DNA of 63,447 bases from IMG/VR virus record IMGVR_UViG_3300049896_000002, positions 1 to 63,447 of that record; one strand, written 5' to 3'. Positions 1 through 63,393 of the stretch are shown in pieces. Under the pieces are notes generated by a model. It was not told the origin of the DNA, did not search any database, and saw nothing but the letters and a program-made list of their open reading frames with translations. The position numbers were made by a program, and so were the translations under genes. Every line of letters begins with the position of its first letter. The first letter of the stretch is position 1. This stretch comes from a virus (Duplodnaviria; Caudoviricetes).

Positions 1-54
1 GTCGTTTGCGGCGTCTTACCATCGCAAGTTAATCGTGTTAACTAAATACTCGTA
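1..54. repeat. Left copy of 54-bp imperfect terminal direct repeat
   Basis: Matches 63394-63447 at 49/54 positions; contains the 3' end of the beta-clamp gene. Confidence 0.9.
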
Positions 55-2082: not shown

Positions 2083-2318
2083 CCTTCCTTTGCCAGTTGG
2101 GCCAGCGGTAGTTGCGCCATCTGCTCTTCGTAAGTCGCAACAGCCCCAGCGAGTCGCGTACTCCAGTCTCTGCCGTTGTTGTACCAGTATTGCGCGGCCT
2201 CAACCACCTTCGCCTGTCTATCAACTTGTGCCGCGAGTGTCGCATTCAACGCCTCAAGTTGATGTATACGCCGGATGGCGACATCGTATAAATCCATACC
2301 GTCTTTCGTTGCCATCAT
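2079..2318 (-). CDS. Hypothetical protein
   Basis: Stop/start overlaps with both neighbours. Confidence 0.6.
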   Translation of the reverse strand: MMATKDGMDLYDVAIRRIHQLEALNATLAAQVDRQAKVVEAAQYWYNNGRDWSTRLAGAVATYEEQMAQLPLAQLAKEG

Positions 2319-7198: not shown

Positions 7199-8479
7199 AT
7201 GTCAAGATCCTCCACAGTACAGAGCCATATCCGTCTAAAGTCCTTTCACCTCCAGCGTCATCCCAATACAGCCTTTAGTCTGGGAGAATGGAAGCGCTAC
7301 CTCGATGGTCGCTGGCAACGAGTAGCAGACATGCAGGTGAGGCGAGAAGTGCAGGAGATAGCGGTACGATACGGTACGACGGTGGTAACGGCACCGCTGG
7401 TCAGTTCGATCTACTCACTCCTTCAGCAGCATGTGTTTTTATCCGATGATACCTTCGACTCACAAGTGGATCTCATTACCTTTCTCGACTGCGTGTTGAG
7501 CGTGTCCACCGGAGAGACGCGCGAGTGTAAACCGGAAGACTACGTAACCTCTCGCCTTCCCTTTCACTACTACCCGGAGGCCAGATCCGATGCCTGGATG
7601 CAGGCGCTCGCGATGACAGAGCCGGAGTACGTACCATTCTTGCAGGAGTTTGCCGGTTACTGTCTCACCCCCTCTACCGCGCACGAACTCGCTCTCTGGT
7701 GCTGGGGCGAGCCGGGAAGCGCCAAGTCTACCTTCATCACCGGACTGGAGGCGATGCTGGGCGCGCGCTGTTGCACGCTCGGGCTTGCCGACATTGAGCG
7801 ATCGCAATTTGCCCTCGCACAAATTCCCGGCAAGACCCTCGCGATTTCCACTGAGCAACCTTCTCGCTTCGTCAAGTGCTCTCATGTGCTCAACTCTCTC
7901 ATCTCCGGCGAATCCCTCATCTGGGAGCGGAAGTTCATCGATCCAATCACAATTCGTCCAATGGTCAAGCTCGTCTGGGCGATGAATGAACTGCCACGTA
8001 TTGATTCATCGGGTGTCGGCCTCTTTCGTCGCGTAGTGCCTGTGCCGTGGCGCAAGGTCGAGAAGCCTGACCCAGCAGTGAAGGAAGCCGTCAAACTCTC
8101 CGGCCAGGCGATCTTCAACTGGGCCTACGAAGGGCTGCGACGCCTGAATGAGCGCGGTAGATTTGACATCCCCGCTGGACTCATCACTGAACGAGAAACA
8201 TACAGAATCCAAAATGACATTCCACAACTATTTATTGAGGAGATGTGTGAGCGCGTAGACACCTTTGACGAAAACGGTCACTATGTTCGAATTCAGTCCG
8301 CTGTTTTGTACTTCAATTATAAGCAATGGTGCCTAAATACGAGCCATAAACCGTTGTCTTCTACGGCTTTTGGACTGGAAGTAAAGCGTCTTGGGATAGA
8401 GAAGACTATGATTGATGGAAAGGTCTGGTATCTCGGAATTCGTTTTAGGCCAACAGATGACCATGAAGTCGAAATGTAA
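7199..8479 (+). CDS. D5/P4-family SF3 helicase lacking a primase domain
   Basis: D5_N-like region, Walker A GEPGSAKST, WAMNELP, LFRRV, C-terminal winged helix (LYFNYKQWC). Confidence 0.9.
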   Translation: MSRSSTVQSHIRLKSFHLQRHPNTAFSLGEWKRYLDGRWQRVADMQVRREVQEIAVRYGTTVVTAPLVSSIYSLLQQHVFLSDDTFDSQVDLITFLDCVLSVSTGETRECKPEDYVTSRLPFHYYPEARSDAWMQALAMTEPEYVPFLQEFAGYCLTPSTAHELALWCWGEPGSAKSTFITGLEAMLGARCCTLGLADIERSQFALAQIPGKTLAISTEQPSRFVKCSHVLNSLISGESLIWERKFIDPITIRPMVKLVWAMNELPRIDSSGVGLFRRVVPVPWRKVEKPDPAVKEAVKLSGQAIFNWAYEGLRRLNERGRFDIPAGLITERETYRIQNDIPQLFIEEMCERVDTFDENGHYVRIQSAVLYFNYKQWCLNTSHKPLSSTAFGLEVKRLGIEKTMIDGKVWYLGIRFRPTDDHEVEM

Positions 8480-28780: not shown

Positions 28781-28988
28781 GTTTAACTTCGACCTCTCGT
28801 GCGCAGCGGTGCTGCAAAAGTACGATCTTGACCGGGACGAATCGGCGCGCAAATTCCACGCGGCAGTAATGGGGGCTGAGTTTAAGGATGATGCTCCAAA
28901 GACCGGCAAGCCAATTGCCTCTAACGGGCAAAAGCGCACGATGACCAAAGACGACATCATGCGGAACTACGCAAAAATAGATGGCTGA
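28683..28988 (+). CDS. Tail assembly chaperone frameshift extension (T-like)
   Basis: +1 frame open from 28677: FVAERKDEHLLVSLAARDFGLDPWELMKGNPRRFNFDLSCA. Confidence 0.7.
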   Translation, partial: FVAERKDEHLLVSLAARDFGLDPWELMKGNPRRFNFDLSCAAVLQKYDLDRDESARKFHAAVMGAEFKDDAPKTGKPIASNGQKRTMTKDDIMRNYAKIDG

Positions 28989-31900
28989 CGCCTTAAGGCT
29001 TTTGTTCGAGTTAGACGTGGATTCCCGCTCTGGTACGGCGGGACTGCTACGTTTCCGTAAGGACATTGCCGCCACTATCGAAGCAGCGCGACGCGCGATC
29101 ACTCAACCATTAAAAACCCTCAACACTGCACCTGCAACTGCCGCAATCAGCAAAGCTTCCGTTGCGACTCAGGAGTTAGCCAATCGCAACGCTCGCGCCG
29201 CACAGGCATCGCAGCGACTACAAATTGGTCAACAGCGATTAGCGGTGGCTACTACTCAAGTGACGGCGGCACAGCAGCGAGCCGCCACCGCCATCCAACG
29301 CGCCGCCACAGCGCAGACACAGGCAGCAGCGGGTGCCATCCGGGCCTCTACGGCTTTTCAGCGCGCAACTGCGGCGGCAAACAGCTTTGCGCAGTCTTTG
29401 AATAGCAACCTGACACGGGCACTTGCATCAGTGCAATCAGGCTTGCGCAGCTTGGGCTCAGGACTTCAGTCAATCGGGCGCACACTTACAGTCGGTATCA
29501 CGGCTCCGATACTTGCCCTCGGAGCGGCATCACTTAAGAGCGCGAAAGATCTCGATGCGAATGTAAACACCTTGAAAGCGTTTACAGGCAGTGCGGCAGC
29601 GGCAGAAGTACGTCTGGCCCAACTGATCAAGACTGCACGAGGGACACCCGGTCTTACAACGACCCTTGCCTTAACTCTTGATGCTCAACTGCGCATCGCA
29701 CAGACCACACAACAAACTATCGATCGAGTTTTGCCAGCCATAGGGAGACTGAATGCTGTTTCAAAACTTCCTGATGCAGCAAGGTTCACACAAAACCTTT
29801 TGCAACTCGTCACGCAAAACTTTGAAAAGCAAGACTTAAAGGAACTGGTTGGTCAGAGCCCGCTTGCGGGCCAGCTCCTTACCGAGATCTTCAAGGTTGA
29901 CTCACCGACCAACGCGAAGGCTATCCGAGAGCAGGCGAAGAAACTCGGGCTAACGAGTGTTGACGCGTTCTTTAATGCCTTTGCAGACGCAGCCGCAAGG
30001 AATCAAGGATTAGCAACTGTAACGGAGTCGATCGGTACGCGATTTGACAAAGTAGTAGACCGCGTGACGGTAGCCTTGCGCCCGCTTGGCCTGGCGATTC
30101 TGAAGGCCATAGAGCCTTTTGTGGAACCTGTTGCAAGGCTAATTGAGCGCATTGGTGCTGCCTTTGATTCTCTTTCCGAACCAGTTAAGACAGCCATCAT
30201 CGTGATTGCGGGAATAGCAGCGGCTGCTGGTCCTGTTTTGTTTGTATTGGGTGGCTTGGCAACTGGAATCACCGCGGTGGTTTCCGCTATCGGGACTATC
30301 GCGGCGGCGGTCGCGGCGGTTGGCCTTCCGGCGATCGCTGCCGCCGTCGGCGGAATTATCATCCTCATAACAGAATGGGCTGTGATTCTCGGCGCGTTGG
30401 GACTTGCTTGGCAGAAAAACTTTCTCGGCATTCGCGATTTGGTGTCTGAGGCGGGCTCTGCCGTGTTCGAGGCGTTCACTCGCATCAAGGCGATCATTGA
30501 TGAAGCAACACAGCGAATCCTGCCAACGCTGCAATCAATTACAACGAAGGTTTTAGGAATTATCACATTGGTTTGGGAGAGGTACGGAAAAGTAGTTGTT
30601 GCCGTTGTCGGAACAGCCTTCAGGTTTATCTTATCCGTTACAGAAAACTTCCTAAAGAACTTCACGGACTTTGTTGATCTTGTTTTGAAGTTGGTAGACG
30701 GTGACTGGAAAGGCGCGTGGTCAGCGTTTTCACGAATCGTTATCCGAGCGGTTGAACAGGTTGAGTTCGTCTTAGTGAGGCTGAATGCGATTGTCTTGAC
30801 CGCCTTACTTAAGCTGAATCAGGCCATAGTCCGCGGGGCTGTCAACTTCGCTATAGCCGCTGAAATACTGGCAGCGAAGTTTATCGCGGCTTTCGTGTCT
30901 GCCCTGTTAAAAGCGGATAGAGCCATTCGGGATGCGCTGATTGATGCGTTGATCTTAGCCGTGAAGGGAATGGACGTCACAACCATTGGCGCAGTAATGG
31001 TAGGAAAACTCCTAGCGGCAATGCGGAAGGCTGCCGCACAGGGCGTCACCGTGCCGATTGAGTTTGTTCCTCAGGATAACCTCCAGCGTATAGAGCTGAA
31101 TCCGGATGGCTCGATAAAAACAAAGAAGACGCCGCCTCCGGGTGGTGGCGCGGGTGGAAAGGACAAGGGAGCCGACGCGGAGACGAAGCGCCGCATACGT
31201 CTGCTTGAACTTGAAGCAGAGCGAACTGAGGCGATCAATCGACAGAACATCGAAGCTGAGCGGCTGAGATTCGAACTGAAAGAAAAATCGCTTAAGCAAG
31301 TCACGGAAGACGAGATCAGGCTTGAGCAGGAAATCTTAGAAAAGAAGAGAAAGATTTTCGCTGCGGAGTTGATAGAAGCTCAGAAACTTGGCAAGGGGCG
31401 GGAGTTAGCAGAAAAGGAAATCAATCTCAAGTCGCTACAGGCTGAGATTGAGTTTCACAACAAGGTAAACCAGCTTCGAGTTAATCAACGTAAGGAAGAG
31501 GAACGGGCAGCGATTGAGCATCGGCAGAAGCTCCTTGATATCCAAGAAAGAGGTGAGGCTCGCGAGATAGCCCGTCTTGAGGAACTATCCAAAACCGGGC
31601 GGATTACCGCGTTTGAGCGTGAAAGGCGTGTTGCTGAAATCGAAGCTGATGCTCGCAGACGCCGCCGAGGCGAACTTGAAAAGCAACTGGAGGAAACCAA
31701 AGAAAACAAGGAAGAGCGCGGACGAATTCAGGACGAGTTAGCGCAGTTTGATGAAGAGTCCGCCGAAGCCACCGAGGAAGCCGAGCGCAGGAAGCGTGAG
31801 GCACTGCAAGAAACTGTTAGAGCTTTCAACAGCTACAAGCGAGCAATCACCGATGCAATCGCAGAGACTAACGCCGCAATCAGAGATGTCGTTCGCATTG

Positions 31901-33087
31901 CCCTAGAGCGGCCCGAAGCGGCTTTCAATCTTGGGCGACAACGGATAATCAAAGCGCAATTCAAACTACGACAACGGGAACTCGCAGAAGATCGCAAAGC
32001 CGCACAACAGAGGATAGACGCTCAAGAGCAAGATGCGATAGACCAAGCGAAATTAACAGGCGACTTTGAAAAACGACAGTTCGAGATCGAAGAAACGTTC
32101 CGGAGGAGACGATTAGCCGCTGATCGACAGTTCAACGCGGAACGCCGTGCGCTTCAAGAGGAGGAGCAGAGAGAACTTGAACGGGCTAATCCCAATTCCA
32201 CTCGTTCACTTTTTGGCGATACGTTCGCGGATGCCGCCAACGCCATTCGAGAGGCCGCACGGTCAGCAGGGGAGGCAGTATCAAGCCTGACCGTTATCCT
32301 CGGGAGCTTCGGTGCCGCAGCCGCAGAACACTTCGCTAACGCTTCAGCGCAGGCTGGCAATTTCATCTCCACGTTACTCGAAGGCATTGACAATATAGTC
32401 GCGGGGTTAGGCGACATGCTTGCGAATTGGGTACTCTTGGGCGAGACCGGTGCTGCGGCATTCCGGAAACTGATCGCTTCGACGCTTGCCTACTACGCAC
32501 GAACCTTTCTTATCAAGGCACTCGACAATATAGGTGAAGGATTCTCAAACCTTGCGAAGGCGAGTGCGGCAGCCGCTTCGGGTAATTTGGTCTCCGCTGC
32601 GCTCTATAAAGCAGCCGCCGTGCAGAACTTTATCTCTGCGGCTAAATACGGAATTGCGAGTGCCGCCACAGCCGTTGCGGGGCGTTTCGCGGCGGGCGAC
32701 TCGTTTAAGCAAAAAGATACAGCAAGGCGCGCAGTTAACGGAGGGGAAGACGCAGAACCGAGGAATCGTACCTTTAACTTTGGCGGAGGCGGGCCAGTCG
32801 AATCATCTTCACAGGCCACTCGAGATGGATCAGGTGGTGTCCTTGGCCGTTTGGTTGGGCGGATAGAATCCTTACAACAACAGAATCTTGAACTCCAGCG
32901 TCAGCAGCAGTTACAGAACGCGCAAGTTGCCCAAGCACTGACGAAATTTAATACCGCTAGCCCTGGTGATGTGGTGACAATGGGAGCGCAACAACGTCCC
33001 GACTCGATAGGAGTAGCTGTTATTGATCACTCAAATTCAAGTGGAGACTTCAACGAAAAACTACAACGCAATTTGGGGTTTGCCTAA
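28981..33087 (+). CDS. Tape measure protein
   Basis: 1368 aa, Ala-rich, GITAPILALG, hydrophobic central segments, long coiled coils. Confidence 0.95.
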   Translation: MADALRLLFELDVDSRSGTAGLLRFRKDIAATIEAARRAITQPLKTLNTAPATAAISKASVATQELANRNARAAQASQRLQIGQQRLAVATTQVTAAQQRAATAIQRAATAQTQAAAGAIRASTAFQRATAAANSFAQSLNSNLTRALASVQSGLRSLGSGLQSIGRTLTVGITAPILALGAASLKSAKDLDANVNTLKAFTGSAAAAEVRLAQLIKTARGTPGLTTTLALTLDAQLRIAQTTQQTIDRVLPAIGRLNAVSKLPDAARFTQNLLQLVTQNFEKQDLKELVGQSPLAGQLLTEIFKVDSPTNAKAIREQAKKLGLTSVDAFFNAFADAAARNQGLATVTESIGTRFDKVVDRVTVALRPLGLAILKAIEPFVEPVARLIERIGAAFDSLSEPVKTAIIVIAGIAAAAGPVLFVLGGLATGITAVVSAIGTIAAAVAAVGLPAIAAAVGGIIILITEWAVILGALGLAWQKNFLGIRDLVSEAGSAVFEAFTRIKAIIDEATQRILPTLQSITTKVLGIITLVWERYGKVVVAVVGTAFRFILSVTENFLKNFTDFVDLVLKLVDGDWKGAWSAFSRIVIRAVEQVEFVLVRLNAIVLTALLKLNQAIVRGAVNFAIAAEILAAKFIAAFVSALLKADRAIRDALIDALILAVKGMDVTTIGAVMVGKLLAAMRKAAAQGVTVPIEFVPQDNLQRIELNPDGSIKTKKTPPPGGGAGGKDKGADAETKRRIRLLELEAERTEAINRQNIEAERLRFELKEKSLKQVTEDEIRLEQEILEKKRKIFAAELIEAQKLGKGRELAEKEINLKSLQAEIEFHNKVNQLRVNQRKEEERAAIEHRQKLLDIQERGEAREIARLEELSKTGRITAFERERRVAEIEADARRRRRGELEKQLEETKENKEERGRIQDELAQFDEESAEATEEAERRKREALQETVRAFNSYKRAITDAIAETNAAIRDVVRIALERPEAAFNLGRQRIIKAQFKLRQRELAEDRKAAQQRIDAQEQDAIDQAKLTGDFEKRQFEIEETFRRRRLAADRQFNAERRALQEEEQRELERANPNSTRSLFGDTFADAANAIREAARSAGEAVSSLTVILGSFGAAAAEHFANASAQAGNFISTLLEGIDNIVAGLGDMLANWVLLGETGAAAFRKLIASTLAYYARTFLIKALDNIGEGFSNLAKASAAAASGNLVSAALYKAAAVQNFISAAKYGIASAATAVAGRFAAGDSFKQKDTARRAVNGGEDAEPRNRTFNFGGGGPVESSSQATRDGSGGVLGRLVGRIESLQQQNLELQRQQQLQNAQVAQALTKFNTASPGDVVTMGAQQRPDSIGVAVIDHSNSSGDFNEKLQRNLGFA

Positions 33088-47718: not shown

Positions 47719-48033
47719 TTAACATTTTAGTTTCTCCATCCACGCACGAGCGCGTTGGCAGAACTCACCATGTGGCTCCTTGTCATCAGTCAAATCCTTA
47801 CGGCACCAACAGGGGCCGTGCGTCTCAGGGTAATGCCGATCTGCGGTCTGGCTGAGCACTGCCCGTACTTCCCTAAGCGACAGGTCCACACGATCTGCTA
47901 ACGCTTTCTCACCCCATCCTGCGCCGGGATACTTATCGCCCTCAGATTCCAACACAAGGCGTTTGGCCTTGCGATTGACCCCGGCATCCATAAACAAGTC
48001 GTGAGCGATTGATTGAGACAATTGACTAGCCAT
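47719..48033 (-). CDS. Hypothetical protein, paralogue of 11160-11405
   Basis: CWC..PH..CQRARA; start from TAATG overlap. Confidence 0.65.
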   Translation of the reverse strand: MASQLSQSIAHDLFMDAGVNRKAKRLVLESEGDKYPGAGWGEKALADRVDLSLREVRAVLSQTADRHYPETHGPCWCRKDLTDDKEPHGEFCQRARAWMEKLKC

Positions 48034-48827
48034 TATAGTTCTGCTTCTCTCTGACTTATTCCAGTAATAAGTCGTGCTGCTTGTTCTTTCTGCATCGGTG
48101 TTAGGCCAGCGGATTGAAACTTCCACCACATATCATCGAAGTTCGATACTGGTGTGAAGTAGCCAATGTCGCTCTTGATGTCGCCCAAGCACATTAGGAT
48201 TGCATCTTCAAGACGTATCCCGCGACTGCGAACGTAATGTACGCGATCGCCGAATTCCATTCGGCCAATACCCTGATTCGGTGTAAATCTTAACGTCTCA
48301 TCCTGCACTAAGTACCACAGATGATCGGGCGCGAGAACTACGTATTCATCAGGGAACAACCATGCCGGACCTCTTTCAGTTTGGATGGTTACTAGAAACT
48401 GTCCGTATCGCGTCCATCCCTCTTTCGTGTCAGGAGCCCAATTAGCAAAGTAAGTCTCACCAGGGCGAAGCGTACTATGGGCACCTTCGACGGCTTGTAC
48501 GCTACCGATGAAAGTCACATAAGCGCCATCTTCGCCAATCAATTGATTGTCTATTGGATCATATCGAAGTAACTCGCGCGAATTGTGGCTGTGAACCGTT
48601 AATGCGAAGGCAATTACCTCAGGTGTTAGACGGTTACTATCAGAAGATACGAATCGATTTACAACTCTGCGAAGGCGGCGACTCTCATGTGGCTTCGATA
48701 ACAGCCGGCCTGTTTTTCTCACCTTGCACGGCTCTCCCGATGATGCACCGCAGATATAGCAGTCAGAAGCGAGCGTGGTCTCATCAGATGAAGGAAGTAT
48801 CAGTGTATCGTTACGTTGGAATGTCAC
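48033..48827 (-). CDS. Zn-finger protein with SufB/SufD-like C-terminal motif
   Basis: CYICGASSGEPC..PHESR; HYVRSRGIRLEDAILM. Confidence 0.6.
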   Translation of the reverse strand: MTFQRNDTLILPSSDETTLASDCYICGASSGEPCKVRKTGRLLSKPHESRRLRRVVNRFVSSDSNRLTPEVIAFALTVHSHNSRELLRYDPIDNQLIGEDGAYVTFIGSVQAVEGAHSTLRPGETYFANWAPDTKEGWTRYGQFLVTIQTERGPAWLFPDEYVVLAPDHLWYLVQDETLRFTPNQGIGRMEFGDRVHYVRSRGIRLEDAILMCLGDIKSDIGYFTPVSNFDDMWWKFQSAGLTPMQKEQAARLITGISQREAEL

Positions 48828-48870: not shown

Positions 48871-49488
48871 TCATGCTAACGATCCCCACTGTTCCGCCAT
48901 TGCTTCAGCAATTCCTTGAAATGTGCGACTGCGTTCCTTCCATCTCTCAGGAGATGGCGGTAAGTGGTGGAGTCGTTGCGCCTCGGACTTCTTCTCGGGG
49001 AGCGCTACGATGTTCGTTGGTGTAAGTGGAGGCAGCCCTTTAAGCCACAGGCACGTTGCCTTAGATTCCGCGTGTCCGAAGTGAAAGGGCTGAAGCTTCT
49101 GAGCATAATCGCCCATGATTAGACGGGCGTCTCGGTAAGGGATCGGATTTTCTCCGCAGATCAGAGGGATCGGCGCATCCAAAAGCCGTCGGAAGTTATT
49201 TGCAGATTCGATCATGGCCTCACGCCGGGCCCGCCCGAACAATGTCCCAGCCTTTGGCCTCTTCGGAACATTAAAAAGCCATCTCGCTCCGGCTCGTGTT
49301 AGATAAGTGCAGGGCCAGTGAAACACCATTAAATCCCATCCTTGTTCCAGTATGCTGAATACATCACACTGAATATGCGGGCCTTGTCTTTCGGATGGCA
49401 GCAAATCGCAGGACACGGCATCGTGTCCACGGGCTATAAAGGAATCCCTCACGATACCGCTAAATTCACAGGCAACAAGGACTCTCAT
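48871..49488 (-). CDS. Short phage DNA (cytosine) methyltransferase
   Basis: MRVLVACEFSG, HWPCTYL, ENP, KATCLWL, RSRTFQGIA.AMA.QWG. Confidence 0.85.
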   Translation of the reverse strand: MRVLVACEFSGIVRDSFIARGHDAVSCDLLPSERQGPHIQCDVFSILEQGWDLMVFHWPCTYLTRAGARWLFNVPKRPKAGTLFGRARREAMIESANNFRRLLDAPIPLICGENPIPYRDARLIMGDYAQKLQPFHFGHAESKATCLWLKGLPPLTPTNIVALPEKKSEAQRLHHLPPSPERWKERSRTFQGIAEAMAEQWGSLA

Positions 49489-49685
49489 CTCTGACTCCGT
49501 AGCTCTGCCTCTCTTTGGCTCTGAATCTCTTGAAGTGAAAGCAGCAATTGATGACGTAGCGGAAGAGGCTCAGGCTCTAATCGAAGCCCACATTGCGTAC
49601 AAAAGCCCGCCTCAAGATCGGCAGAAGTGAGTTCATTCCCACAGCCTCGCTCTCTGTCTCCGCAAAAAATTCGCTGCTCACTCAT
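49485..49685 (-). CDS. Small Zn-ribbon protein
   Basis: MSEQRIFCG..GCG..FCTQCG. Confidence 0.55.
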   Translation of the reverse strand: MSEQRIFCGDRERGCGNELTSADLEAGFCTQCGLRLEPEPLPLRHQLLLSLQEIQSQREAELRSQR

Positions 49686-50122
49686 TTCTTTACCTCTCGC
49701 TTCGTAGTTGGCTTCGCCGCTCCTGCGGCCATCACGGTTTTGTATTCCGTGTTCCATCCGTACTTTGAAACATCGCCGTGCCATGCCTCCGCCACTTCTT
49801 GCAGTGCGGCAATAAACTCGGGGCCGTGGTTCTTGATTAACTTACATGCTCTTAGTGCCCGCTTGCCCGCTAAAAGATGCGCAAATTCATGTAAGAGACA
49901 ATTAGTTGTGCCGCGCCATACTAACGGCCCGGCAGATATCCACCATTGATTAAGACATGCCTGCCCGCGTAATGACCGCAGACTCCATCGCAGCGTTGGG
50001 GCGGTAACATTGAAATACGCCGCTAGGATTTCGATCATCTCTTCTGCCTCACCACGTAGCAACCGATCTGATGTGCGCTTTAGTTCACGCTCCCGCATCT
50101 GCCGTGTTTGCTTGATCATCAC
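49682..50122 (-). CDS. SprT-like zinc metalloprotease
   Basis: LLHEFAH..NHGPEF. Confidence 0.75.
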   Translation of the reverse strand: MMIKQTRQMRERELKRTSDRLLRGEAEEMIEILAAYFNVTAPTLRWSLRSLRGQACLNQWWISAGPLVWRGTTNCLLHEFAHLLAGKRALRACKLIKNHGPEFIAALQEVAEAWHGDVSKYGWNTEYKTVMAAGAAKPTTKREVKK

Positions 50123-51232: not shown

Positions 51233-51499
51233 ATGAATGGAAATCTCACTTATGGCCCGCTTGGGCGACTAGTTTCAGCGCTGGCAATCGTTTCTGCGTT
51301 TATTGGTTCGTTACAAGCTTCGGGGTTTCTGGTGCTACTACCACCTAAGTATTCATGGGTTGGTCTGGTTGTCACGGCAGCGGGATTGTTGATTGCTGGC
51401 TTTTCTGAGCGTATCCAGGGCGGCGCCAGTAAGCCCGAGGTAAGAGACGCGGCAGGGGCTTCCGACGTTAAGAACGCGAGAGAGGAGTTGAATCAATGA
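51233..51499 (+). CDS. Putative holin (2 TM)
   Basis: Two hydrophobic helices, charged C-terminal tail. Confidence 0.55.
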   Translation: MNGNLTYGPLGRLVSALAIVSAFIGSLQASGFLVLLPPKYSWVGLVVTAAGLLIAGFSERIQGGASKPEVRDAAGASDVKNAREELNQ

Positions 51500-51948
51500 T
51501 CCGAAAACAACGGCGCTCACAACTGGCAATCCTATTACTTCTCGCAACTGTAGGATTCGGCTATGGCCCATGCAGCGGCAAGCAGCAGCCTAAAACCGTG
51601 GCTGACATGCTCACCACAATGGGCAACGTTAAACGCGATCTGCGCTCACGAAACGAAATTACCGCACAGCAGGATTACGACATCAGCGCGAAACTACTTG
51701 AGGCCAACCGTGCTTATCGTAGTTTTGTCAACGATGAACTGGCGCGACTTGCAAACAGCAATAGCACAACGCCCGATCCTTCCGCGCGACAAGCCGCAGT
51801 GCGAGCGTTGATTACGAGCCTGCGCGGGCTACAAGATCCGACACTGCTCGGTATCAAGAGCGCCAGCGCGCAAAAGATCTGGCGAGAGAGCATTGCAGGC
51901 ATGAACACAGTTATCGCCGGACTGGAAGCCTTGCAAGGAGGAAATTAA
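51496..51948 (+). CDS. Exported, possibly lipoprotein, helical protein
   Basis: Basic N-term, hydrophobic core, GYGPC (atypical lipobox). Confidence 0.6.
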   Translation: MIRKQRRSQLAILLLLATVGFGYGPCSGKQQPKTVADMLTTMGNVKRDLRSRNEITAQQDYDISAKLLEANRAYRSFVNDELARLANSNSTTPDPSARQAAVRALITSLRGLQDPTLLGIKSASAQKIWRESIAGMNTVIAGLEALQGGN

Positions 51949-52140
51949 ATGGAGTGGATTGCAATTTTCAACCTGATCGCCCCGCACGTGTTCAAGGCCA
52001 TTGGCGATGCTCGCAATCAGAATCCGCAAGCTACCTACAAAGAAGTCCTACAAGCGGCGGGAATTGAACTCGACGCGGAACAGGCGCGACTATTAGCCGA
52101 TATGGCTAAAGCGGTGAGTGAGGGCGCGGTGCCGAGATAG
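51949..52140 (+). CDS. Hypothetical protein
   Basis: SD AAGGAGG. Confidence 0.65.
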   Translation: MEWIAIFNLIAPHVFKAIGDARNQNPQATYKEVLQAAGIELDAEQARLLADMAKAVSEGAVPR

Positions 52141-52167
52141 AACTTTTGCGACCATACCCGCAAGGAG

Positions 52168-52413
52168 ATGTGCATGGCCCTGATTTTCAAGTTCGACACG
52201 GAGCAATTCCAGACGCTTGTCACCGCTATCAACAACCTCTCTGACAACCTTGCCAAGTGGCAGGGGAAGGAGACTGAGGCTATCGAGCAGGGATTCAGCA
52301 ACCTCGCTATCGCCCTCGGCGGTGAAGACGTACAGGCAAGAATTGATGCGCTAACCAGCGAAGTCAAAACCGAAGCAGACGCACTCGAAGGTTCTGCTCA
52401 ATCTGAAACTTAA
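52168..52413 (+). CDS. Coiled-coil hypothetical protein
   Basis: SD AAGGAG. Confidence 0.6.
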   Translation: MCMALIFKFDTEQFQTLVTAINNLSDNLAKWQGKETEAIEQGFSNLAIALGGEDVQARIDALTSEVKTEADALEGSAQSET

Positions 52414-52437
52414 TCATTCAACTCAGAAGGAGATATT

Positions 52438-52710
52438 ATGGCAGCAGACTTTTCTCAACTGACAACAGAAGTAGAGCGCATCAAACAAGTGCGCCCGTCA
52501 ATCGTGGCAATCATTGAAGGCATCGCAGACCGCGTACAGGCAGCGGTGGATGCGGATAACGCGGGCGATAACAGCCAACTGGCGACTTTGTCAGCGGATC
52601 TGCGCGCGGAAGCCGACGAGTTTGCTCGTGTGGCAGTTGCGGGCACTCCGACTGAGGGCGGCACCGGCGGAACAGGCGGTGGTACTACGGAGGGTGGTAC
52701 CCGAGCGTAG
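52438..52710 (+). CDS. Coiled-coil protein with Gly/Thr tail
   Basis: SD AAGGAG; helical heptads. Confidence 0.7.
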   Translation: MAADFSQLTTEVERIKQVRPSIVAIIEGIADRVQAAVDADNAGDNSQLATLSADLRAEADEFARVAVAGTPTEGGTGGTGGGTTEGGTRA

Positions 52711-53001
52711 CTGAAACAAATTCGCAGCGCTCGCCGGGAAGCTTGTTTACCCTTTCTTTGCAAATTGGGGCATTTTGCAAATTGGCACTGACGAGCGTTG
52801 CGATTGCTTACTCCATCCGTGGACGGGATTCGTGCTCGTGCTGAGTCTCTGTCGCGGAAGGACGAAGGTAAAATGAGCAATTGCCGAGGTGATATTGATC
52901 ATATCCGGCTTGGACCAACCGAAGATTATTATGTGAAGTTTGAGGAAGAGCGGGATCGGGCTGTAGATCGCTTCGTGGCGCGGATTCTAAAAGGAGTCGA
53001 A

Positions 53002-53265
53002 ATGCACTATAAAAACGGACGTGAAGCACACAACGGGGACAAGGTAATGCTAATACCAAGCCACGGCCCGCCAGTCATTGGCATCCTGTATGACGCCGTG
53101 GCAGGCAACGACTATTGCAACGGACGCATTGCGCCAATATCACCGAGTGACCCGTCGCCCAATCTTAAAGAAGTTCTGCACTTCGACGACGTGATGTATA
53201 CGCTCTCACTTCCAGAAGAGATTGCTGATACATCGAAGTTAGAAGTCCAAGATGTCAGCGAATGA
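53002..53265 (+). CDS. Phage hypothetical protein
   Basis: MHYKNGREAHNGDKV..NDYCNG; SD AAGGAG before ATG 53002. Confidence 0.7.
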   Translation: MHYKNGREAHNGDKVMLIPSHGPPVIGILYDAVAGNDYCNGRIAPISPSDPSPNLKEVLHFDDVMYTLSLPEEIADTSKLEVQDVSE

Positions 53266-53363
53266 AAATCACAATCATCGCAGTGCTTAGTTTCGCCGCT
53301 GGCTTCGTAGCTGGCGCATTCAGCCTTTGGTACTACTTCATGCGCAAGGGAGTGCTAGGATAA
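53262..53363 (+). CDS. 33-aa single-TM peptide (not in ORF track)
   Basis: MKITIIAVLSFAAGFVAGAFSLWYYFMRKGVLG. Confidence 0.55.
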   Translation: MKITIIAVLSFAAGFVAGAFSLWYYFMRKGVLG

Positions 53364-53390
53364 GTAACGGAGTTAATCAGCAACCACCCA

Positions 53391-53801
53391 ATGAGCGAAA
53401 CCCCGAGTGATGACCTGGTGCTTGAATCTGCGGCGCGACCGTTTCTTAGCTACGCATTCTTGTTCAAGTCGTGGATGCGAAGCAATGATGCCAAGCTGGT
53501 ATCAGACGGAGAAATTATGTTCGCAGTGAACGAGGAAATTGGGGCCATGTTCGGGTATCACCCGAGCGAGTTAATAGGAAAATGCGTGGACGTACTAGTG
53601 CCTGAGAGTGTGAGACCAAGACATATAGGACTGAGAGAGGGTTACAAGGCTCATCCTAAAAATCGCCCAATGGACGCTGGAAGAGTGCTCAAAGCACGAC
53701 ATAAGTCAGGTCGTGAGTTCTCAGTGGTCATTAATCTACTTTATAATACCGAGGCATCAGAGACACTAATTGAAGCCACGATTAGGCGGGTAGATGATTG
53801 A
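53391..53801 (+). CDS. Stand-alone PAS-domain protein (FixL-like)
   Basis: VNEEIGAMFGYHPSELIGKCVDVLVPESVRPRH..RPMDAGRVLKARHKSGREFSVVINL. Confidence 0.9.
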   Translation: MSETPSDDLVLESAARPFLSYAFLFKSWMRSNDAKLVSDGEIMFAVNEEIGAMFGYHPSELIGKCVDVLVPESVRPRHIGLREGYKAHPKNRPMDAGRVLKARHKSGREFSVVINLLYNTEASETLIEATIRRVDD

Positions 53802-54307
53802 AAGATTTGCTGCCTTATGTCGGTATTTTAGCTTTAGCGCTTTCAATTCTGAACACCGTTTATCAGCGGAAGAAGGATCAGCAAGGGGACTGGAGCAAGA
53901 AGATTGATGAGGCAGTAAAACCCTTTAACGGACTACCCGACACAGTATCCACGGTTGCGGCGGAATTAAAGGTCCTCCAAAAACAGATGGAGGTTTTTTG
54001 GAAAGGCGTGTCGTTTAGTTCAGCACAGGCGCTACACTCGCCACACACAAAAGAACTTGACGCGCTGTTGGAGAAATTTCAGCGTGATGAGATTGAGAGT
54101 GAACGAGACCTACAGAAACTCAAGTCAATGCTAACTGATGTATCCAAGACAGATGACAGTCCCTTGCGGCGTAAGTTAGCGCTCGACATCTTGACTTTGA
54201 TTCACGTGCGCTTTGAGATAGGCGGCGATTTAATCAACTCCCTACGGCAACAGGATCGCGGTTTACGCGATTCTATGGATCACTTTTCCCGACACTTAAA
54301 AGAGTGA
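53798..54307 (+). CDS. N-terminal TM plus coiled-coil protein
   Basis: LLPYVGILALALSILNTVY then helical domain. Confidence 0.75.
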   Translation: MKDLLPYVGILALALSILNTVYQRKKDQQGDWSKKIDEAVKPFNGLPDTVSTVAAELKVLQKQMEVFWKGVSFSSAQALHSPHTKELDALLEKFQRDEIESERDLQKLKSMLTDVSKTDDSPLRRKLALDILTLIHVRFEIGGDLINSLRQQDRGLRDSMDHFSRHLKE

Positions 54308-54630
54308 AACTAACCGCTGCCCTGATATTTGTCATCATCTGGTTTCTTTATCTCGCTATTGGAGCGGGAGCAGGGTTTGCGGCGTGGCGTATTTGGCCCG
54401 CACACAAGGATCGGTTTACGCAATGCTTGATCTTATTCCTGCATGGGCCAATAGCCGATGCATTGACAGCAATCGTACTGGTATTTCTAGCTAAGGGCGT
54501 AAAGTTCACATGGAAGTTTAGTATTGTTTTGTTTGCCGGGGCACTGATAAAGATCGCCGTCAGCTTGCCGCTTCTGTTAAAGTTGATGCGCGGGTTTACA
54601 GATGGGGAGAACAGTAGAGGGACAAACTAA
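54304..54630 (+). CDS. 3-TM membrane protein (holin-like)
   Basis: Three hydrophobic segments. Confidence 0.7.
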   Translation: MKLTAALIFVIIWFLYLAIGAGAGFAAWRIWPAHKDRFTQCLILFLHGPIADALTAIVLVFLAKGVKFTWKFSIVLFAGALIKIAVSLPLLLKLMRGFTDGENSRGTN

Positions 54631-54873
54631 ATGGCGACTGGGGACTACGCGCATCTATACGCCCATTGTAATGACAATCATCCGCTTGGTGCGTGTGTGA
54701 CTCAAGGGATGAATTGCCGCATCTCTACCGAAGTCAAGTTAACGTTTGGTGAGCGAGTAGCGGCTTTGACACGAATTGAAAACGCTGCTGAGCGCGGTGA
54801 GCAGTGGGCCATTGAGAGATTAAAGTTGCTGGATGAATACTTGCGGAAGTTCAATCAAACTGAAAGGAAGTGA
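54631..54873 (+). CDS. Hypothetical protein
   Basis: Cys/His-rich N-term. Confidence 0.55.
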   Translation: MATGDYAHLYAHCNDNHPLGACVTQGMNCRISTEVKLTFGERVAALTRIENAAERGEQWAIERLKLLDEYLRKFNQTERK

Positions 54874-54881
54874 CCTCCCAA

Positions 54882-55034
54882 ATGACAGCTAATGAAAACA
54901 AGCCGGATAGACCTGATTCGAAGCCGGATACACCAGAGCCAAAGCCAGCACCTAAGCCACAGCCACAGGATGAACCGACTCAACCACCATCAACTAATCC
55001 GGGTGGAGGAGATGTGCCTGGGCCTGGTCGTTGA
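54882..55034 (+). CDS. 50-aa Pro-rich peptide (not in ORF track)
   Basis: MTANENKPDRPDSKPDTPEPKPAPKPQPQDEPTQPPSTNPGGGDVPGPGR; SD AAGGA. Confidence 0.6.
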   Translation: MTANENKPDRPDSKPDTPEPKPAPKPQPQDEPTQPPSTNPGGGDVPGPGR

Positions 55035-55047
55035 CGGGGATGACCAG

Positions 55048-55482
55048 ATGTTTGATGAGGACCTGAAAACTGCTTACATAGCCCTTCAGACGAAGTCTCT
55101 GGATGACGATCCGCACGTACCGTGCCTGGTGAAGTGGTTGCTGCGTCGTATCTATCATCGCTACGGATGGACAGCGATGGGTCACGACGGAAAGAGTTAT
55201 TGCAAGTGGGAATTCTTAGGCATCTTCGATACTTCTACTCAGGCCCGATGGGCCGCAATGGTACCAGGTGGTTCATGGATGGAACTCCCACTAAATGAAT
55301 CGCTGCCAGAAGAAACCAGCCAGTTTCGCGCCCACGACTTTCCACGTTCATCTGTTTCTCATGAATACCGAAATCGTAAGTTGCCGTTTGTATCCCTTCC
55401 CCGTATGGATATTGAGCGATTGGAAGCCAAGGTTAAGGAGACGCTTGACTGCGCTGAAGGTAAATGTGCGAAGGCTGTATGA
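55048..55482 (+). CDS. Hypothetical protein
   Basis: Start reassigned to ATG 55048. Confidence 0.6.
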   Translation: MFDEDLKTAYIALQTKSLDDDPHVPCLVKWLLRRIYHRYGWTAMGHDGKSYCKWEFLGIFDTSTQARWAAMVPGGSWMELPLNESLPEETSQFRAHDFPRSSVSHEYRNRKLPFVSLPRMDIERLEAKVKETLDCAEGKCAKAV

Positions 55483-55485
55483 ACT

Positions 55486-55950
55486 ATGCAGGAGACCTAC
55501 GTGCCGCCTCACTGGATACAGACCGCCCTAGGGTGGCTTGCATCAGGCGTTGCAGGGGGTCTTATTGTTCGTCTTTGGACTACTTGGCTAAATCGCAAGA
55601 AACCCGCCGCTGAAATTCACGTTACTGAAGCTACCGCCGGAGAGATAAAAGTTCGCGCCAGTTCCAGCGCGTCCGATGCCGTCATGCGGATGATGGAACA
55701 TTTAGGCCGGGCGCAGGAGACAATTGATAGGCTGCGCGCTGAGCGGGATGCGTGGCAGGACGAGCATGACAAGATATTTGTGGAGCGGGATGAGATGCTC
55801 AGATGCAATGGGTTATTGAAAGAGGAAGTTAAGAATTACGAGAATCAGATCCGGACCATGAGCGCGACTCTCACGATTGAGCATAAGAACTACGACAATA
55901 CACAGGACGCTAAACCTGAAGACTACACGCTACCAACTAAGCCCAAATAG
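55486..55950 (+). CDS. N-terminal TM plus coiled-coil protein (lysis-cassette type)
   Basis: ALGWLASGVAGGLIV..WLNRKK then heptads. Confidence 0.7.
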   Translation: MQETYVPPHWIQTALGWLASGVAGGLIVRLWTTWLNRKKPAAEIHVTEATAGEIKVRASSSASDAVMRMMEHLGRAQETIDRLRAERDAWQDEHDKIFVERDEMLRCNGLLKEEVKNYENQIRTMSATLTIEHKNYDNTQDAKPEDYTLPTKPK

Positions 55951-60396: not shown

Positions 60397-60833
60397 CTTG
60401 TTTGCTCTCGCACGTCGAAGTAGTCTACTCGCTCAAATCGCATACTCAGTGCCATAGGTATCAACCACTTTAGATTCGGAATAACGTCAAACGGCAACGC
60501 GAAGGCGCTGACTATTACAGGCTTTTCATCAGTTGTCGCTTGAGCTTTACCGATTAGTCCAATGGCAGAAAGGAAGTGGATTCGCCAGCCACGCTCATCG
60601 CTAAGCACGCAGAATTCACACCATGAATCACATTCCAGACCAGTCTCTTCAAGAAACTCACGGCGCATTGCCTGTTGTACGTCTTCACCATCTTCGACTC
60701 GCCCGCCAATCCCATTCAGCTTTCCTTCTTGCCATGTTGGACGATTCTTGCGAAGAAGTAACACTGCGTTTTCAGCAGAGTTGAACATAAAGCCTACTAC
60801 ATAAACTGCGCCCGCTACTGTTTCAGCCATCAC
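60393..60833 (-). CDS. Nudix hydrolase
   Basis: Nudix box GRVEDGEDVQQAMRREFLEETGL. Confidence 0.9.
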   Translation of the reverse strand: MMAETVAGAVYVVGFMFNSAENAVLLLRKNRPTWQEGKLNGIGGRVEDGEDVQQAMRREFLEETGLECDSWCEFCVLSDERGWRIHFLSAIGLIGKAQATTDEKPVIVSAFALPFDVIPNLKWLIPMALSMRFERVDYFDVREQTR

Positions 60834-63253
60834 CCTGCCACCCCACTAAACAGCGTCGTCTGTTCCATTGCGGCCTCAGCGTTGCGCAGGTTGGCGCAAG
60901 CCTGCTTGAAGTATGATTCTTTCAGCTCATGGCCTAGAAACCTTCGTCCCATTTGTACCGCGCGATAACCTTCGCTCCCAATTCCGGCAAACGGGGAATA
61001 GACCAGATCGCCAGGGTTAGACCACAGCTGAATGCCGCGTTCGATCACTTGCAGCTGAAGTGGCGCGATGTGGCGCTCGTCAGCTTGCTCTCTCGCTGAT
61101 TCTCGTTGCAGCGTGTCGCTCGGATTAATGTCCATCCAGACAGGAGAGGCATAGCGTTGCCAGATATCGATGCTGGTTCGCGTGGCGCCTGATCCGGCTA
61201 CCACCTGATCCGAGTATGCGTTTAGCGGTGACTTGACCGTGTCATCGCGGCGGACAATGAAGCCATCTCCGGCATAGCGGTCTAATGGTCCAGCAACGCG
61301 CTCCGGGTTCTCACCCGGCTTACGCATCGTCACTAGATAGTCTGGTATCCCCTGGCGGCTCATACACGAATCTTTAACCAACTGTTTATGCAGCAACCCT
61401 AACGCCTTGGTGCGTTGCATTGCAGTTACGGGATCTTTCCAGATCACGGCCTCGCTGTGGTAAATGAACCCACCTGAGCGTAGCGAGGCGTCAACCAGCG
61501 CGGCGTCAATCTCAGACGTGTCACGTTCTAGTCGTTGCAGTATCCGCTTAGATTCATGGAGTGCCGCGGCCTCGCTACCACAAAACATTCGAATCAAATT
61601 ACCGCGAAAGTCAGTCTGCCCAATTACTCCATCACGCTCCTTGCTCGTAGGGAGGTTCATGCAGTGAAACGAAAGCAGTCGCCCCGACATCAGCACGCGA
61701 TACAGTTCTTCTACTAAGAAAGAGAAGTGATCATAGAACTCCGTGTGAGTGCGAGCGTTGCCCATGTCCCGTTCTGAAGCCGAGTAGGTATAAAGGCTGG
61801 CGAAAGGTGGCGAGAAAATAGAGTAGTGGATGCTATTACTAGCAACTTCTTTGATTCCCTCAACACAATCCCCTAACCGCATCTCCCATCGCTCACCCTT
61901 AGCAACCGCAGTCTTGTAAGTGTCCGCCGTCCTCACTGTCCCACTATGCACTGCCTCAGTGTTATATACACTCATATGTTTCACCATTTCCTTCGCCATC
62001 TTCGCGGCATCGGCTTCCTTGCGTTGAATGTTGCGGACCACTGCGCCCTCGGCTTCTGACGTGATGACGTGGCAATTGACTTCGTTCTTCTGCCCAAATC
62101 TCCAGCAGCGACGAACACCCTGATACAACTCTTCGAACGAGTCTGAGATACCAAGAAACGCAACGTTGTGACATTGTTGTAAATTTAGCCCCCAGCCAAA
62201 GATCGACACCTTGCTGATTAGAATGCGCTTGTCTTTATTCAGCCATTGAGCCAGCCGTGACTCTTTCTCGGTGTCCGACAGTGAGCCGTAAATTGACACG
62301 CATTCATCGCCACAGAGTTTAGCGAGCGTGTCCTGTTCCACATTCAATCCACACCACACAACCCACTGAGAGTCATCAGCTTTGATTAACTCGCTCAGTA
62401 GTTGCACTCGTTCTGCGATACTATCGCGCCGTGCGCCACGTCGCTCGATTAGTGTCTGTGCTTCAACTGGAAACAGGAACCCGTCAAGATTCTTCTCAGC
62501 TTTAACAACGTGATGATGGTAGTTGAGTGTCGGCAGAATAAAGCCATCGTCATCGTACCCGAGATCGGAAGGTCGCCGCATCATCACGGCCCACTGACAC
62601 ATCCATTTCCAGTACTCCTCTTGCGCGTGGCCCTTTAATCTCCACTTGGACGTGTCACCGCCATCATGCACGAAGAACGTTGACAGCATCTCGGTGCGTG
62701 TCAGTACGCCTAAAAACTCGCTATGGTTGCCTAGTTCCATCCTGTCATTTGGCGCAGGAGTAGCCGAACAGCACAGCTTCATCGGCGTGTGCGCGAATGC
62801 CTCAATTAGCAGGTTGCGCGTTACGCTGGTGAAATTTTTCAGGCATCCTGATTCATCGAGAATGATGCCGGGGAACACGGACGGATCGAAGTGGTGCAGC
62901 TTCTCATAATTCGTGATGTAGATCCCCGGCCCGTCAACTTCCGCCTGTGACACAACTACGCGGCAGGGGATGTCGAACTTCTCACCCTCACGAGCTGTTT
63001 GATGCGAGACTGACAGTGGCGCGAGAATCAGCACAGGCGCGTTAACGTGTTGGGCTACATGCTCAGCCCAGGACAACTCCATCAAACTCTTGCCAAGGCC
63101 GCAGTCGGCCCAAATCGCTGCCTTACCAATACGCAGGGACCAGCGGACCAGGTCGCGTTGAAAGGGAAACAGATGCGGGTTAGCAGGCTCAACTTCAAAC
63201 CCGCTCGGCGCAATCGTAATGCGCTTGCTGTCTAGGAATTCAGCGTAGTCCAC
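60830..63253 (-). CDS. SF2 (SNF2-like) helicase fused to N4/N6 DNA methyltransferase
   Basis: ADCGLGKS, ILDESG, SATPAPND, RCWRFGQ; IFSPPF and PFAGIGS; GTG start after SD AGGAG. Confidence 0.9.
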   Translation of the reverse strand: MDYAEFLDSKRITIAPSGFEVEPANPHLFPFQRDLVRWSLRIGKAAIWADCGLGKSLMELSWAEHVAQHVNAPVLILAPLSVSHQTAREGEKFDIPCRVVVSQAEVDGPGIYITNYEKLHHFDPSVFPGIILDESGCLKNFTSVTRNLLIEAFAHTPMKLCCSATPAPNDRMELGNHSEFLGVLTRTEMLSTFFVHDGGDTSKWRLKGHAQEEYWKWMCQWAVMMRRPSDLGYDDDGFILPTLNYHHHVVKAEKNLDGFLFPVEAQTLIERRGARRDSIAERVQLLSELIKADDSQWVVWCGLNVEQDTLAKLCGDECVSIYGSLSDTEKESRLAQWLNKDKRILISKVSIFGWGLNLQQCHNVAFLGISDSFEELYQGVRRCWRFGQKNEVNCHVITSEAEGAVVRNIQRKEADAAKMAKEMVKHMSVYNTEAVHSGTVRTADTYKTAVAKGERWEMRLGDCVEGIKEVASNSIHYSIFSPPFASLYTYSASERDMGNARTHTEFYDHFSFLVEELYRVLMSGRLLSFHCMNLPTSKERDGVIGQTDFRGNLIRMFCGSEAAALHESKRILQRLERDTSEIDAALVDASLRSGGFIYHSEAVIWKDPVTAMQRTKALGLLHKQLVKDSCMSRQGIPDYLVTMRKPGENPERVAGPLDRYAGDGFIVRRDDTVKSPLNAYSDQVVAGSGATRTSIDIWQRYASPVWMDINPSDTLQRESAREQADERHIAPLQLQVIERGIQLWSNPGDLVYSPFAGIGSEGYRAVQMGRRFLGHELKESYFKQACANLRNAEAAMEQTTLFSGVAG

Positions 63254-63393
63254 ACGTTCTCCTAATAACCTGTAGCGCCACCCACGCACCGCTAAGCGAC
63301 CATGAATAAGCTAAAAATGTCCGGCCCTGATAGATCGCAAGCTCAAGGGCCGTGAGCCGTCATGGCAGGGATAACGCTGCGTGACAATGTAGA

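Follow-up and report, generated by a model that had tools for sequence, protein, structure and literature searches.

The virus record IMGVR_UViG_3300049896_000002 (Duplodnaviria; Caudoviricetes) was analysed as a whole, and this stretch of 63,447 bp, which has a CheckV completeness of 100% and a G+C content of 0.50-0.55 along its entire length, is called the window in what follows. The sequencing runs that contain the stretch carry soil or rhizosphere metagenome labels, and no RNA run is among those listed. Downstream of the tail genes lies a plus-strand block (51496-55950) that is rich in membrane proteins and is bordered by minus-strand genes at either end. In this block, a gene for a PAS protein of 136 amino acids (aa) is followed directly by a gene for a 169-aa membrane protein, here called the partner, and these two genes are the subject of this report (Table 1). 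A previous examination of the same DNA from its letters only (the sequence-only reading) had described a PAS sensor coupled to membrane proteins in a lysis-like cassette. Every open reading frame (ORF) it named is present at the coordinates given, and its counts of transmembrane (TM) segments agree with a hydropathy scan, which marks three TM-like segments in the 108-aa protein, a single one in the 33-aa peptide and a single N-terminal one in each of the 169- and 154-aa proteins; the PAS protein has none. The gene overlaps it had drawn are real as well, 4 nucleotides (nt) each: the TTG start of the partner gene overlaps the stop codon of the PAS gene, and the GTG start of the 108-aa gene overlaps the end of the partner gene. 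An overlap of the same length joins the ATG of the 33-aa peptide to the end of the preceding ORF. The ORFs of the pair are not chance ORFs, because the PAS protein has 30 other stand-alone homologues (136-167 aa, 62-86% identity, on metagenome contigs up to 75 kb) and the partner has 66 other homologues in metagenomes.

The 136-aa protein matches the NCBIfam model TIGR00229 (PAS) with 29.8 bits against a cut-off of 22.9. No second domain fits into 136 aa, and the open frame reaches just 9 codons upstream of the start. A fused output domain such as a kinase, a phosphodiesterase or a helix-turn-helix (HTH) domain is absent from the protein, and its 30 homologues are of similar length, so that the earlier description of the protein as only a PAS domain holds. 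Most of the homologues carry a precomputed match to PF13426, and the one on contig L032 reaches 56.8 bits on PF00989. A single-sequence AlphaFold2 model gives two strands, helices and three strands in that order, with a predicted local distance difference test (pLDDT) score of only 44. The protein, having no TM segment, is presumably cytoplasmic.

To which kind of PAS domain does it belong? When the single sequence was compared by phmmer with all PDB sequences, only haem PAS proteins fell below an E value of 0.005, and the only other entry matched was a LuxR-family regulator at 0.8. Alignment A1, which holds 32 members of the PAS family, was then used as a profile against the PDB, and all 14 distinct sequences found at E<=1e-3 were haem-b PAS domains, namely those of RmFixL (7.9e-12), FG214 (10jx; 8.2e-12), DosP/EcDOS (5e-8 to 8e-7) and BjFixL. 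Next after TIGR00229, NCBIfam gave local matches to its FixL and DosP models. Judged by these matches, the 136-aa protein is a stand-alone PAS domain of the FixL/DosP/FG214 haem-b clade. It would work as these sensors do, but shares none of their architectures. The FixL/EcDos subtype proposed in the sequence-only reading is thus borne out by the PDB, profile and NCBIfam matches and by the proximal His, which is kept as described below. As for its origin, an exhaustive protein search returned 18,258 proteins at E<=1e-3, and the best 150 of these are nearly all multi-PAS sensor proteins, whose repeats are 25-45% identical to the phage protein and some of which have kinase domains; one stand-alone protein of 138 aa is among these 150. 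Because the best cellular matches are repeats of multi-PAS sensors, the phage gene looks like a captured PAS repeat of a sensor kinase. No relative was found by tblastn in 50,697 GenBank phage records, nor in a search of genome contigs.

Candidate residues for haem ligation can be named from the alignments. In the profile alignment, read by chain positions, RmFixL, BjFixL and FG214 all have their proximal His at the position of His78 in the window protein; in the two FixL proteins this residue is what we take to be His194 and His200, respectively. Six residues (His78, Arg82, Tyr85, Pro89, Arg92 and Met94) are invariant in 32/32 A1 sequences, and the same six are invariant in eight diverse phage PAS proteins that are 30-71% identical to the window protein, where the conserved stretch comprises P71, R75, H78, R82, Y85, P89, R92 and M94. 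The segment of FG214 that bears its ligands H156 and M172 aligns over this stretch from P71 to M94, with His156 on His78 and Met172 on Met94; His175 falls on Gly97. According to the report on FG214, His156 is its proximal ligand, His175 its distal ligand and Met172 an alternative distal ligand (bioRxiv 10.64898/2026.03.15.711900), and a His is described elsewhere as the only invariable haem-contacting residue in haem PAS structures (PMC10468136). The two columns behave differently in cellular proteins: of 800 PAS domains, drawn from 149 of the 150 best cellular homologues, 777 have His in the His78 column, while the Met94 column is filled mostly by Met (317), Ile (279) and Val (119). On balance we expect from these alignments that the PAS protein binds haem, most likely through His78, and Met94 is a possible candidate for the sixth (distal) ligand.

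The partner belongs to a family of its own. It has no match in Pfam, PHROGs or NCBIfam; the family profile A2 reaches a best E value of only 0.1 against the PDB; a search of the ESM Atlas gave unnamed clusters with a best score of 0.87 and no usable lead. Its AlphaFold2 model is all-helical with long helices (pLDDT 60.5), and Foldseek found 0 matches to this model at E<=1e-3 in the PDB and BFVD. By tblastn, neither the partner nor its homologue on contig L014 has a match in the 50,697 GenBank phage records, and the search of genome contigs with the partner gave one match only, on a 2.3-kb contig of a metagenome-assembled genome of Mycobacterium sp. As far as the libraries searched can tell, the partner is a new membrane-protein family. 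Its architecture (alignments A2 and A4) is an N-terminal TM segment, a basic stretch, an L-H-S-P-H core and then an acidic helix; in the core, Leu-His-Ser is invariant and the second His nearly so. Lysine and arginine residues number three after the TM segment and one before it in the partner, and three and none in the 154-aa protein encoded further downstream. Because of these positive charges after the TM segment (the positive-inside rule), the helical domains of both proteins are predicted to be cytoplasmic, and the partner is probably a single-pass protein with its N-terminus outside.

Two side observations concern this family. On contig L058 (the same region as in L057), soluble ORFs of 71 and 82 aa (4863-5078 and 6188-6436) resemble the C-terminal half of the partner's helical domain and no other part of it, from which the domain appears to be modular; they lie downstream of a partner-PAS-PAS cluster, where a 7-TM protein is also encoded, as is a homologue of the TM protein of actinobacterial-type contigs. 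The latter is a conserved single-TM protein of about 113-138 aa whose gene directly follows the partner homologue in eight high-G+C loci (L014, L035, L036, L037, L040, L042, L043 and L045) and which has two conserved Cys in its C-terminal part. It makes a second conserved pairing of the partner family, one without PAS.

How constant is the pairing of the PAS gene with the partner gene? The counts that follow rest on inspected contigs, and most of the contigs behind the 30 PAS and 66 partner homologues lie outside them. In the close clade, the PAS gene is directly upstream of the partner gene in 11/11 contigs with upstream sequence. These are six IMG/VR relatives and the metagenome contigs L017, L021, L024, L025 and L018, the last of which retains only the final 40 PAS residues before the contig end; L027 was dropped, as it has no upstream sequence. 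The adjacency is kept on L009, where the PAS protein is down to 41% identity and the partner is still at 75%, and on L032, where the pair is at 38% (PAS) and 25% (partner) identity, overlaps by 4 nt and has different flanks. In a region represented by two contigs, L038 and L039, the order is reversed, with a partner homologue of 241 aa followed directly by two stand-alone PAS genes, whose products match profile A1 (E values of 3e-23 and 3e-20) and retain both the His and the Met. In a further region represented by two contigs, L059 and L060, a gene for a PAS protein of 150 aa is followed 7 nt later by one for a protein of 138 aa that has a hydrophobic segment at its N-terminus, a helical tail behind it and no detectable relationship to the partner family. 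There, at 1718-4532 of L059, the stand-alone PAS gene and the TM-helical gene stand just upstream of an ORF of 513 aa that looks like a large terminase by eye, which would be the position of lysis genes in lambdoid phages; neither Pfam Terminase_6N (L059, L060) nor a PDB search confirmed this.

When viral contigs were scanned with the diverse PAS alignment, ten loci were obtained, and in 10/10 the PAS gene adjoins a gene for an N-terminally anchored helical membrane protein, which belongs to the partner family in 8/10. A 4-nt overlap of start and stop codons is seen in the window and on L009, L032 and L058, and the PAS-membrane protein module recurs in at least four phage lineages. The proposal of the sequence-only reading that the PAS gene is coupled to membrane genes, for which it had advised a survey of gene neighbourhoods in phages, is thereby supported for one gene and not for others: the 169-aa gene adjoins PAS in every relative examined, while the 3-TM gene and the 33-aa peptide were not found in the five IMG/VR relatives compared. 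A functional link between the PAS gene and the gene at 53798-54307 is supported by this conserved neighbourhood, and direct physical contact of the two proteins is quite likely. A prediction of the complex of PAS (A1) with partner residues 26-169 (A2) gave interface scores (ipSAE) of 0.00 and 0.00, which speak neither for nor against binding.

What could a single PAS domain without any output domain signal to? We tentatively propose a two-gene phage signalling module in which a haem-PAS sensor gates the membrane partner, with lysis timing as output. Its observed basis is the clade of the PAS domain, the conservation of its residues, its constant place beside the membrane-protein gene and the anchor of the partner in the membrane. 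The soluble, cytoplasmic PAS protein would hold haem via His78, with Met94 as a possible sixth ligand, and would change its conformation or oligomeric state with O2, with redox state or with another haem ligand. The partner, whose translation would be coupled to that of the PAS gene, would be bound or released at its cytoplasmic helical domain by direct contact with PAS, and this would set its activity at the membrane. PAS would then act as a signal-dependent cytoplasmic antiholin that controls the time of lysis, comparable to RIII acting on holin T in phage T4. The full version of this idea, in which an antiholin dependent on O2, NO, CO or redox state holds or releases a new single-pass holin-like family, we regard as rather unlikely in all its parts. 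One might further imagine that the distal haem ligand, which is missing from the PAS protein, is provided in trans by one of the invariant His residues in the L-H-S-P-H core of the partner, which would make the complex redox-switchable; this variant is put very low, because partner homologues without any PAS keep the motif.

Is the block a lysis cassette, as the sequence-only reading had called it? It may be one: in the window phage itself no lysin, holin or spanin family was recognised by Pfam and PHROGs, against which distant members of the partner family do adjoin cell-wall hydrolases. On L032 the gene order is a Hydrolase_2 cell-wall hydrolase (48.5 bits, cut-off 27), PAS, partner and a TM ORF. 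A protein with LysM and transglycosylase domains is encoded two or three genes upstream of the partner homologue on L014 and L015 (by Pfam) and on L035, L036 and L042 (by phmmer), and on L043 a LysM protein lies about 1.4 kb downstream of it (phmmer). Small multi-TM ORFs surround the partner homologue on L031 and L040. Altogether, the partner homologue is lysin-adjacent in 7/13 distant contigs that have enough flank to be judged (the short contigs L016, L028, L029 and L030 being left out), that is, in L014, L015, L032, L035, L036, L042 and L043, and it is not so in L013, L031, L037, L038/L039, L040 and L045. Because the partner family adjoins hydrolases and small TM proteins, and because the block is rich in membrane proteins and lies downstream of the tail genes, control of lysis time takes the largest single share among the possible outputs, though as a claim of its own it is still doubtful.

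Several results weigh against the proposed module and its output, and they are collected here. At the level of the sensor, the Pfam PAS models stay below their cut-offs for the window protein (PAS_9 at 21.7 against 27, PAS at 18.2 against 22.6). The position of the distal His175 of FG214 is Gly97 in the window protein, and R98, which aligns with the ligand-binding Arg of FixL, is Gly in most phage family members, so that an O2-binding pocket like that of FixL in its details is not supported. As to the pairing, most distant partner homologues are without PAS, which means that the partner works alone there, and no longer, fused PAS-partner protein was found, although this last is weak evidence. 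With respect to lysis, no endolysin, holin or spanin family was found among 50 window ORFs by Pfam and 30 by PHROGs, the two sets overlapping. A six-frame search of the window phage and four complete relatives for eight lysin families (Phage_lysozyme, Amidase_2, SLT, Glyco_hydro_19, Peptidase_M15_4, Glyco_hydro_108, NLPC_P60 and Hydrolase_2) gave nothing over the cut-off, the part for Glyco_hydro_19 (PF00182) being uninformative, as control genomes gave no match either. Of the seven lysin-adjacent loci, five have their gene order in common and hence are not independent, and on L013 the partner homologue follows a portal gene (Pfam SU10_portal), as it may on L045, where the portal-like gene was recognised by eye only.

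It is also an observation in its own right that five complete genomes of 63-73 kb, the window phage and these four relatives (G001-G004, the records of L003-L006, 100% complete with direct terminal repeats), are without a recognisable endolysin. The clade of the window phage may use an undescribed lysin. A stretch resembling NLPC_P60 at 32869-33021 (15.2 bits, below the cut-off), near the C-terminus of an ORF of 1368 aa and tape-measure size (28981-33087), is the only trace that the six-frame searches gave, and may be a tail-associated cell-wall peptidase domain.

These points leave room for readings in which the same genes serve another end. The same sensor pair might have an output other than lysis, such as superinfection exclusion, an effect on host respiration or membrane energetics, or membrane-tethered steps of assembly. 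The absence of any lysin found in the clade of the window phage fits this, as do the portal neighbours of the partner homologue on L013 and L045 and the neighbourhood on L038, where a 7-TM protein occurs with no recognised lysin; furthermore, the block encodes a lipoprotein-like protein and several small uncharacterised proteins, as exclusion and 'moron' regions do. Yet the pair on L032 sits between a cell-wall hydrolase and a TM ORF, six actinobacterial-type loci have LysM/transglycosylase neighbours, and PADLOC gave no real match for ten block proteins, so we consider such an output somewhat unlikely. The PAS protein might also carry another ligand or none, and serve as an adaptor for the partner or as a decoy that heterodimerises with the PAS domains of host sensor kinases, the probable source of its capture. 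Haem binding is indeed unreadable from sequence alone, the distal pocket residues seen in FixL and FG214 have not been conserved, and the protein is 40-45% identical to PAS repeats of multi-PAS histidine kinases. Every solved relative, however, is a haem-b protein, and the residues conserved among phages between P71 and M94 overlie the haem-ligand segment of FG214, while a pure decoy leaves unexplained why, in three different gene orders, the PAS gene is strictly linked to one for a membrane partner; a PAS protein without haem is, to our judgement, unlikely.

Finally, the adjacency might mean nothing for function and reflect hitch-hiking of ORFs with unrelated roles in one phage lineage. The 11 close relatives are indeed one clade, whose shared gene order could be mere inheritance. 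But the adjacency persists where PAS and partner have diverged to very different degrees (L009), at low identity of both proteins with different flanks (L032) and in reversed order with two PAS genes (L038), and the overlaps of 4 nt recur in the window, L009, L032 and L058. We give this explanation hardly any credit.

Among known systems, the FixL proteins of S. meliloti and B. japonicum (PDB 1d06, 1dp6) are the best solved sequence match, with their proximal His aligned with His78. In FixL, however, which is a cellular protein, the PAS domain is joined to a histidine kinase with FixJ as the signalling target, and the window PAS is a phage gene product without an output domain. In DosP/EcDOS, the O2-sensing cyclic di-GMP phosphodiesterase of E. 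coli (PDB 1s66, 1v9y, 9cdr), the His is on the same helix, F-alpha. EcDOS uses Met95 as a haem ligand in His/Met six-coordination, which the invariant Met94 of the window protein, in the loop after that helix, recalls, but with an offset of two residues, so that the two Met need not be equivalent, and DosP carries GGDEF and EAL output domains, of which the window PAS has neither. FG214 of Fimbriimonas ginsengisoli (PDB 10jx), a one-component switch made of a haem-b PAS and an HTH domain, ties for the best PDB match. Its haem ligand state drives a change in protein-protein association (bioRxiv 10.64898/2026.03.15.711900), and by analogy this change is a plausible model for how a single PAS domain might signal. 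While FG214 has its own HTH output, the candidate output for the window PAS is carried by another protein, in the membrane.

Photoactive yellow protein and the 'short LOV' (light-oxygen-voltage) proteins are familiar examples of PAS sensors that consist of one domain, have no effector fused to it and must signal by protein-protein contacts. They are cellular and not viral, their cofactors are p-coumarate and flavin mononucleotide, and we know of no conserved membrane partner for them. For a phage PAS protein that reads a chemical cue, the precedent is VqmA-Phage of vibriophage VP882, a quorum-sensing PAS receptor that triggers lysis and, in the literature searched, the only phage-encoded PAS sensor. 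VqmA-Phage is a DNA-binding transcription factor (PAS-HTH) that binds an autoinducer, whereas the window PAS has no DNA-binding domain, belongs to the haem clade and has a membrane partner. The working analogy for PAS and partner is RIII and holin T of T4, to which they have no sequence relationship. RIII, a small antiholin of the cytoplasm, binds the single-TM holin T on its cytoplasmic side, and RI and RIII make the timing of lysis signal-dependent (PMC11413866). A GAF-type domain in holin T, which the sequence-only reading had named, could not be confirmed, and the term does not occur in that paper. In T4 the signal is superinfection and holin T has its large domain in the periplasm; for the partner, a cytoplasmic domain is predicted and holin activity is putative.

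Table 1. Genes of the plus-strand block 51496-55950 of the window.
Feature	Position	Strand	Remarks
150-aa protein	51496..51948	+	signal or lipoprotein-like N-terminus
Small helical proteins	51949-52140, 52168-52413, 52438-52710	+	upstream part of block
Variable 155-aa ORF	52798..53265	+	directly before 33-aa peptide
33-aa peptide	53262..53363	+	single TM-like segment; accessory gene outside the conserved pair
PAS protein, 136 aa	53391..53801	+	no output domain; candidate haem ligands His78, Met94
Partner TMCC169, 169 aa	53798..54307	+	TTG start; N-terminal TM helix at about residues 5-21; helical domain
108-aa protein	54304..54630	+	GTG start; three TM-like segments, generic holin-like topology
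80-aa ORF	54631..54873	+	function unassigned; window-specific among loci compared
Proline-rich 54-aa ORF	54870..55034	+	same-position counterparts in relatives
144-aa conserved protein	55048..55482	+	conserved core of 196-aa ORF 54892-55482; start inferred from L005 homologue
TMCC154, 154 aa	55486..55950	+	N-terminal TM segment and helical tail

The other genes of the block are less constant than the pair. By tblastn, the 108-aa 3-TM gene, the 80-aa ORF and the 33-aa peptide have no counterpart in the five IMG/VR relatives compared; the 33-aa query is a weak tblastn probe, and the ORF maps of these relatives leave no room for the peptide. Contigs of other soil runs do cover the region of the 33-aa peptide, and they join about 52856 to 53262-53272 with 19-28 other letters between. 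Because these contigs skip 52856 to about 53262-53272, close relatives apparently lack the 155-aa ORF or have another sequence in its place. At >=80% nucleotide identity, little of 53400-54790 is covered by contigs from four other runs, which tells neither of expression nor of absence. The 108-aa protein has no family match in Pfam, PHROGs, NCBIfam or PADLOC; holin and spanin families in particular gave no match for the 33-, 169-, 108- and 154-aa proteins in Pfam and NCBIfam, or for the 169-, 108- and 154-aa proteins in PHROGs.

Downstream of the 80-aa ORF, the 196-aa ORF 54892-55482 is, by comparison with relatives, better read as two genes of 54 and 144 aa. Proline-rich ORFs of 62-67 aa follow the partner gene in L003, L004 and L005, with a counterpart also in L017, and the 144-aa protein has tblastn matches in L002, L003, L005, L018 and L025, and none in the PDB, the ESM Atlas or the family libraries. 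Sequence matches to the 154-aa protein occur in L005 and L018, and proteins of the same architecture stand at the same place in L002-L004. Only weak Pfam matches of coiled-coil type were found for the 154-aa protein, and a relationship to the partner family was tried and rejected (hhalign against A2, probability 0.2%), so that the two are unrelated. In the upstream part of the block, homologues of 52168-52413 and 52438-52710 precede PAS in relatives, and lipoprotein-like ORFs akin to the product of 51496-51948 occur in L002 and L003. Neither the 155-aa ORF nor a 270-aa protein of L014 has a phmmer match in the PDB. The only PADLOC match for the ten block proteins was to PDC-S20, with 15 bits and E 0.003, over a helical stretch. 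Between 50400 and 56400, promoter-like sites are at chance level (7 against 5.3 expected), and terminator-like sites are above it (13 against 5.8 expected) with none at an interpretable gene boundary.

Elsewhere in the window, the minus strand at 60830-63289 encodes a protein of 819 aa in which an SNF2-type helicase (SNF2-rel_dom, Helicase_C) is fused to an N6/N4 DNA methylase domain, and a second methyltransferase (phrog_757) is found at 48871-49488, on the minus strand as well. A replication block at 16-1155 (-), 2315-3421 (-) and 7199-8479 (+) contains a DnaN-type sliding clamp with all three beta-clamp domains, two adjacent RusA-like genes and, on the opposite strand, a D5-type primase-helicase. 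Between the tail-fibre region and the plus-strand block, an insert on the minus strand (49682-50122 and 48033-48827) carries a weak SprT-like metallopeptidase match (20.9 bits, below the cut-off) and a phage zinc-finger DNA-binding domain.

Returning to the haem-PAS module, what would it mean for these phages? Phages are known to time lysis or induction from superinfection, as in T4, from host quorum signals, as with VqmA-Phage of VP882, or from peptides of their own. In the literature searched, no haem or gas sensor encoded by a phage came up, nor any phage PAS protein that stands alone. By its sequence, the module is a known sensor clade in a new, virus-borne split architecture, joined to a partner family without matches in the libraries. 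It suggests sensing of oxygen or redox state by a virus at the membrane of its host, possibly for the timing of lysis. If this is true, soil phages of several lineages would time the lysis of their hosts by the oxygen status of the microsite, and a widespread family of phage membrane proteins would be given a function. The finding also points to a group of complete phage genomes without a recognisable endolysin. With relatives of the sensor that are solved and understood in their biochemistry, a single predicted ligand residue and a conserved partner, these two small genes make oxygen or redox sensing by viruses directly testable.

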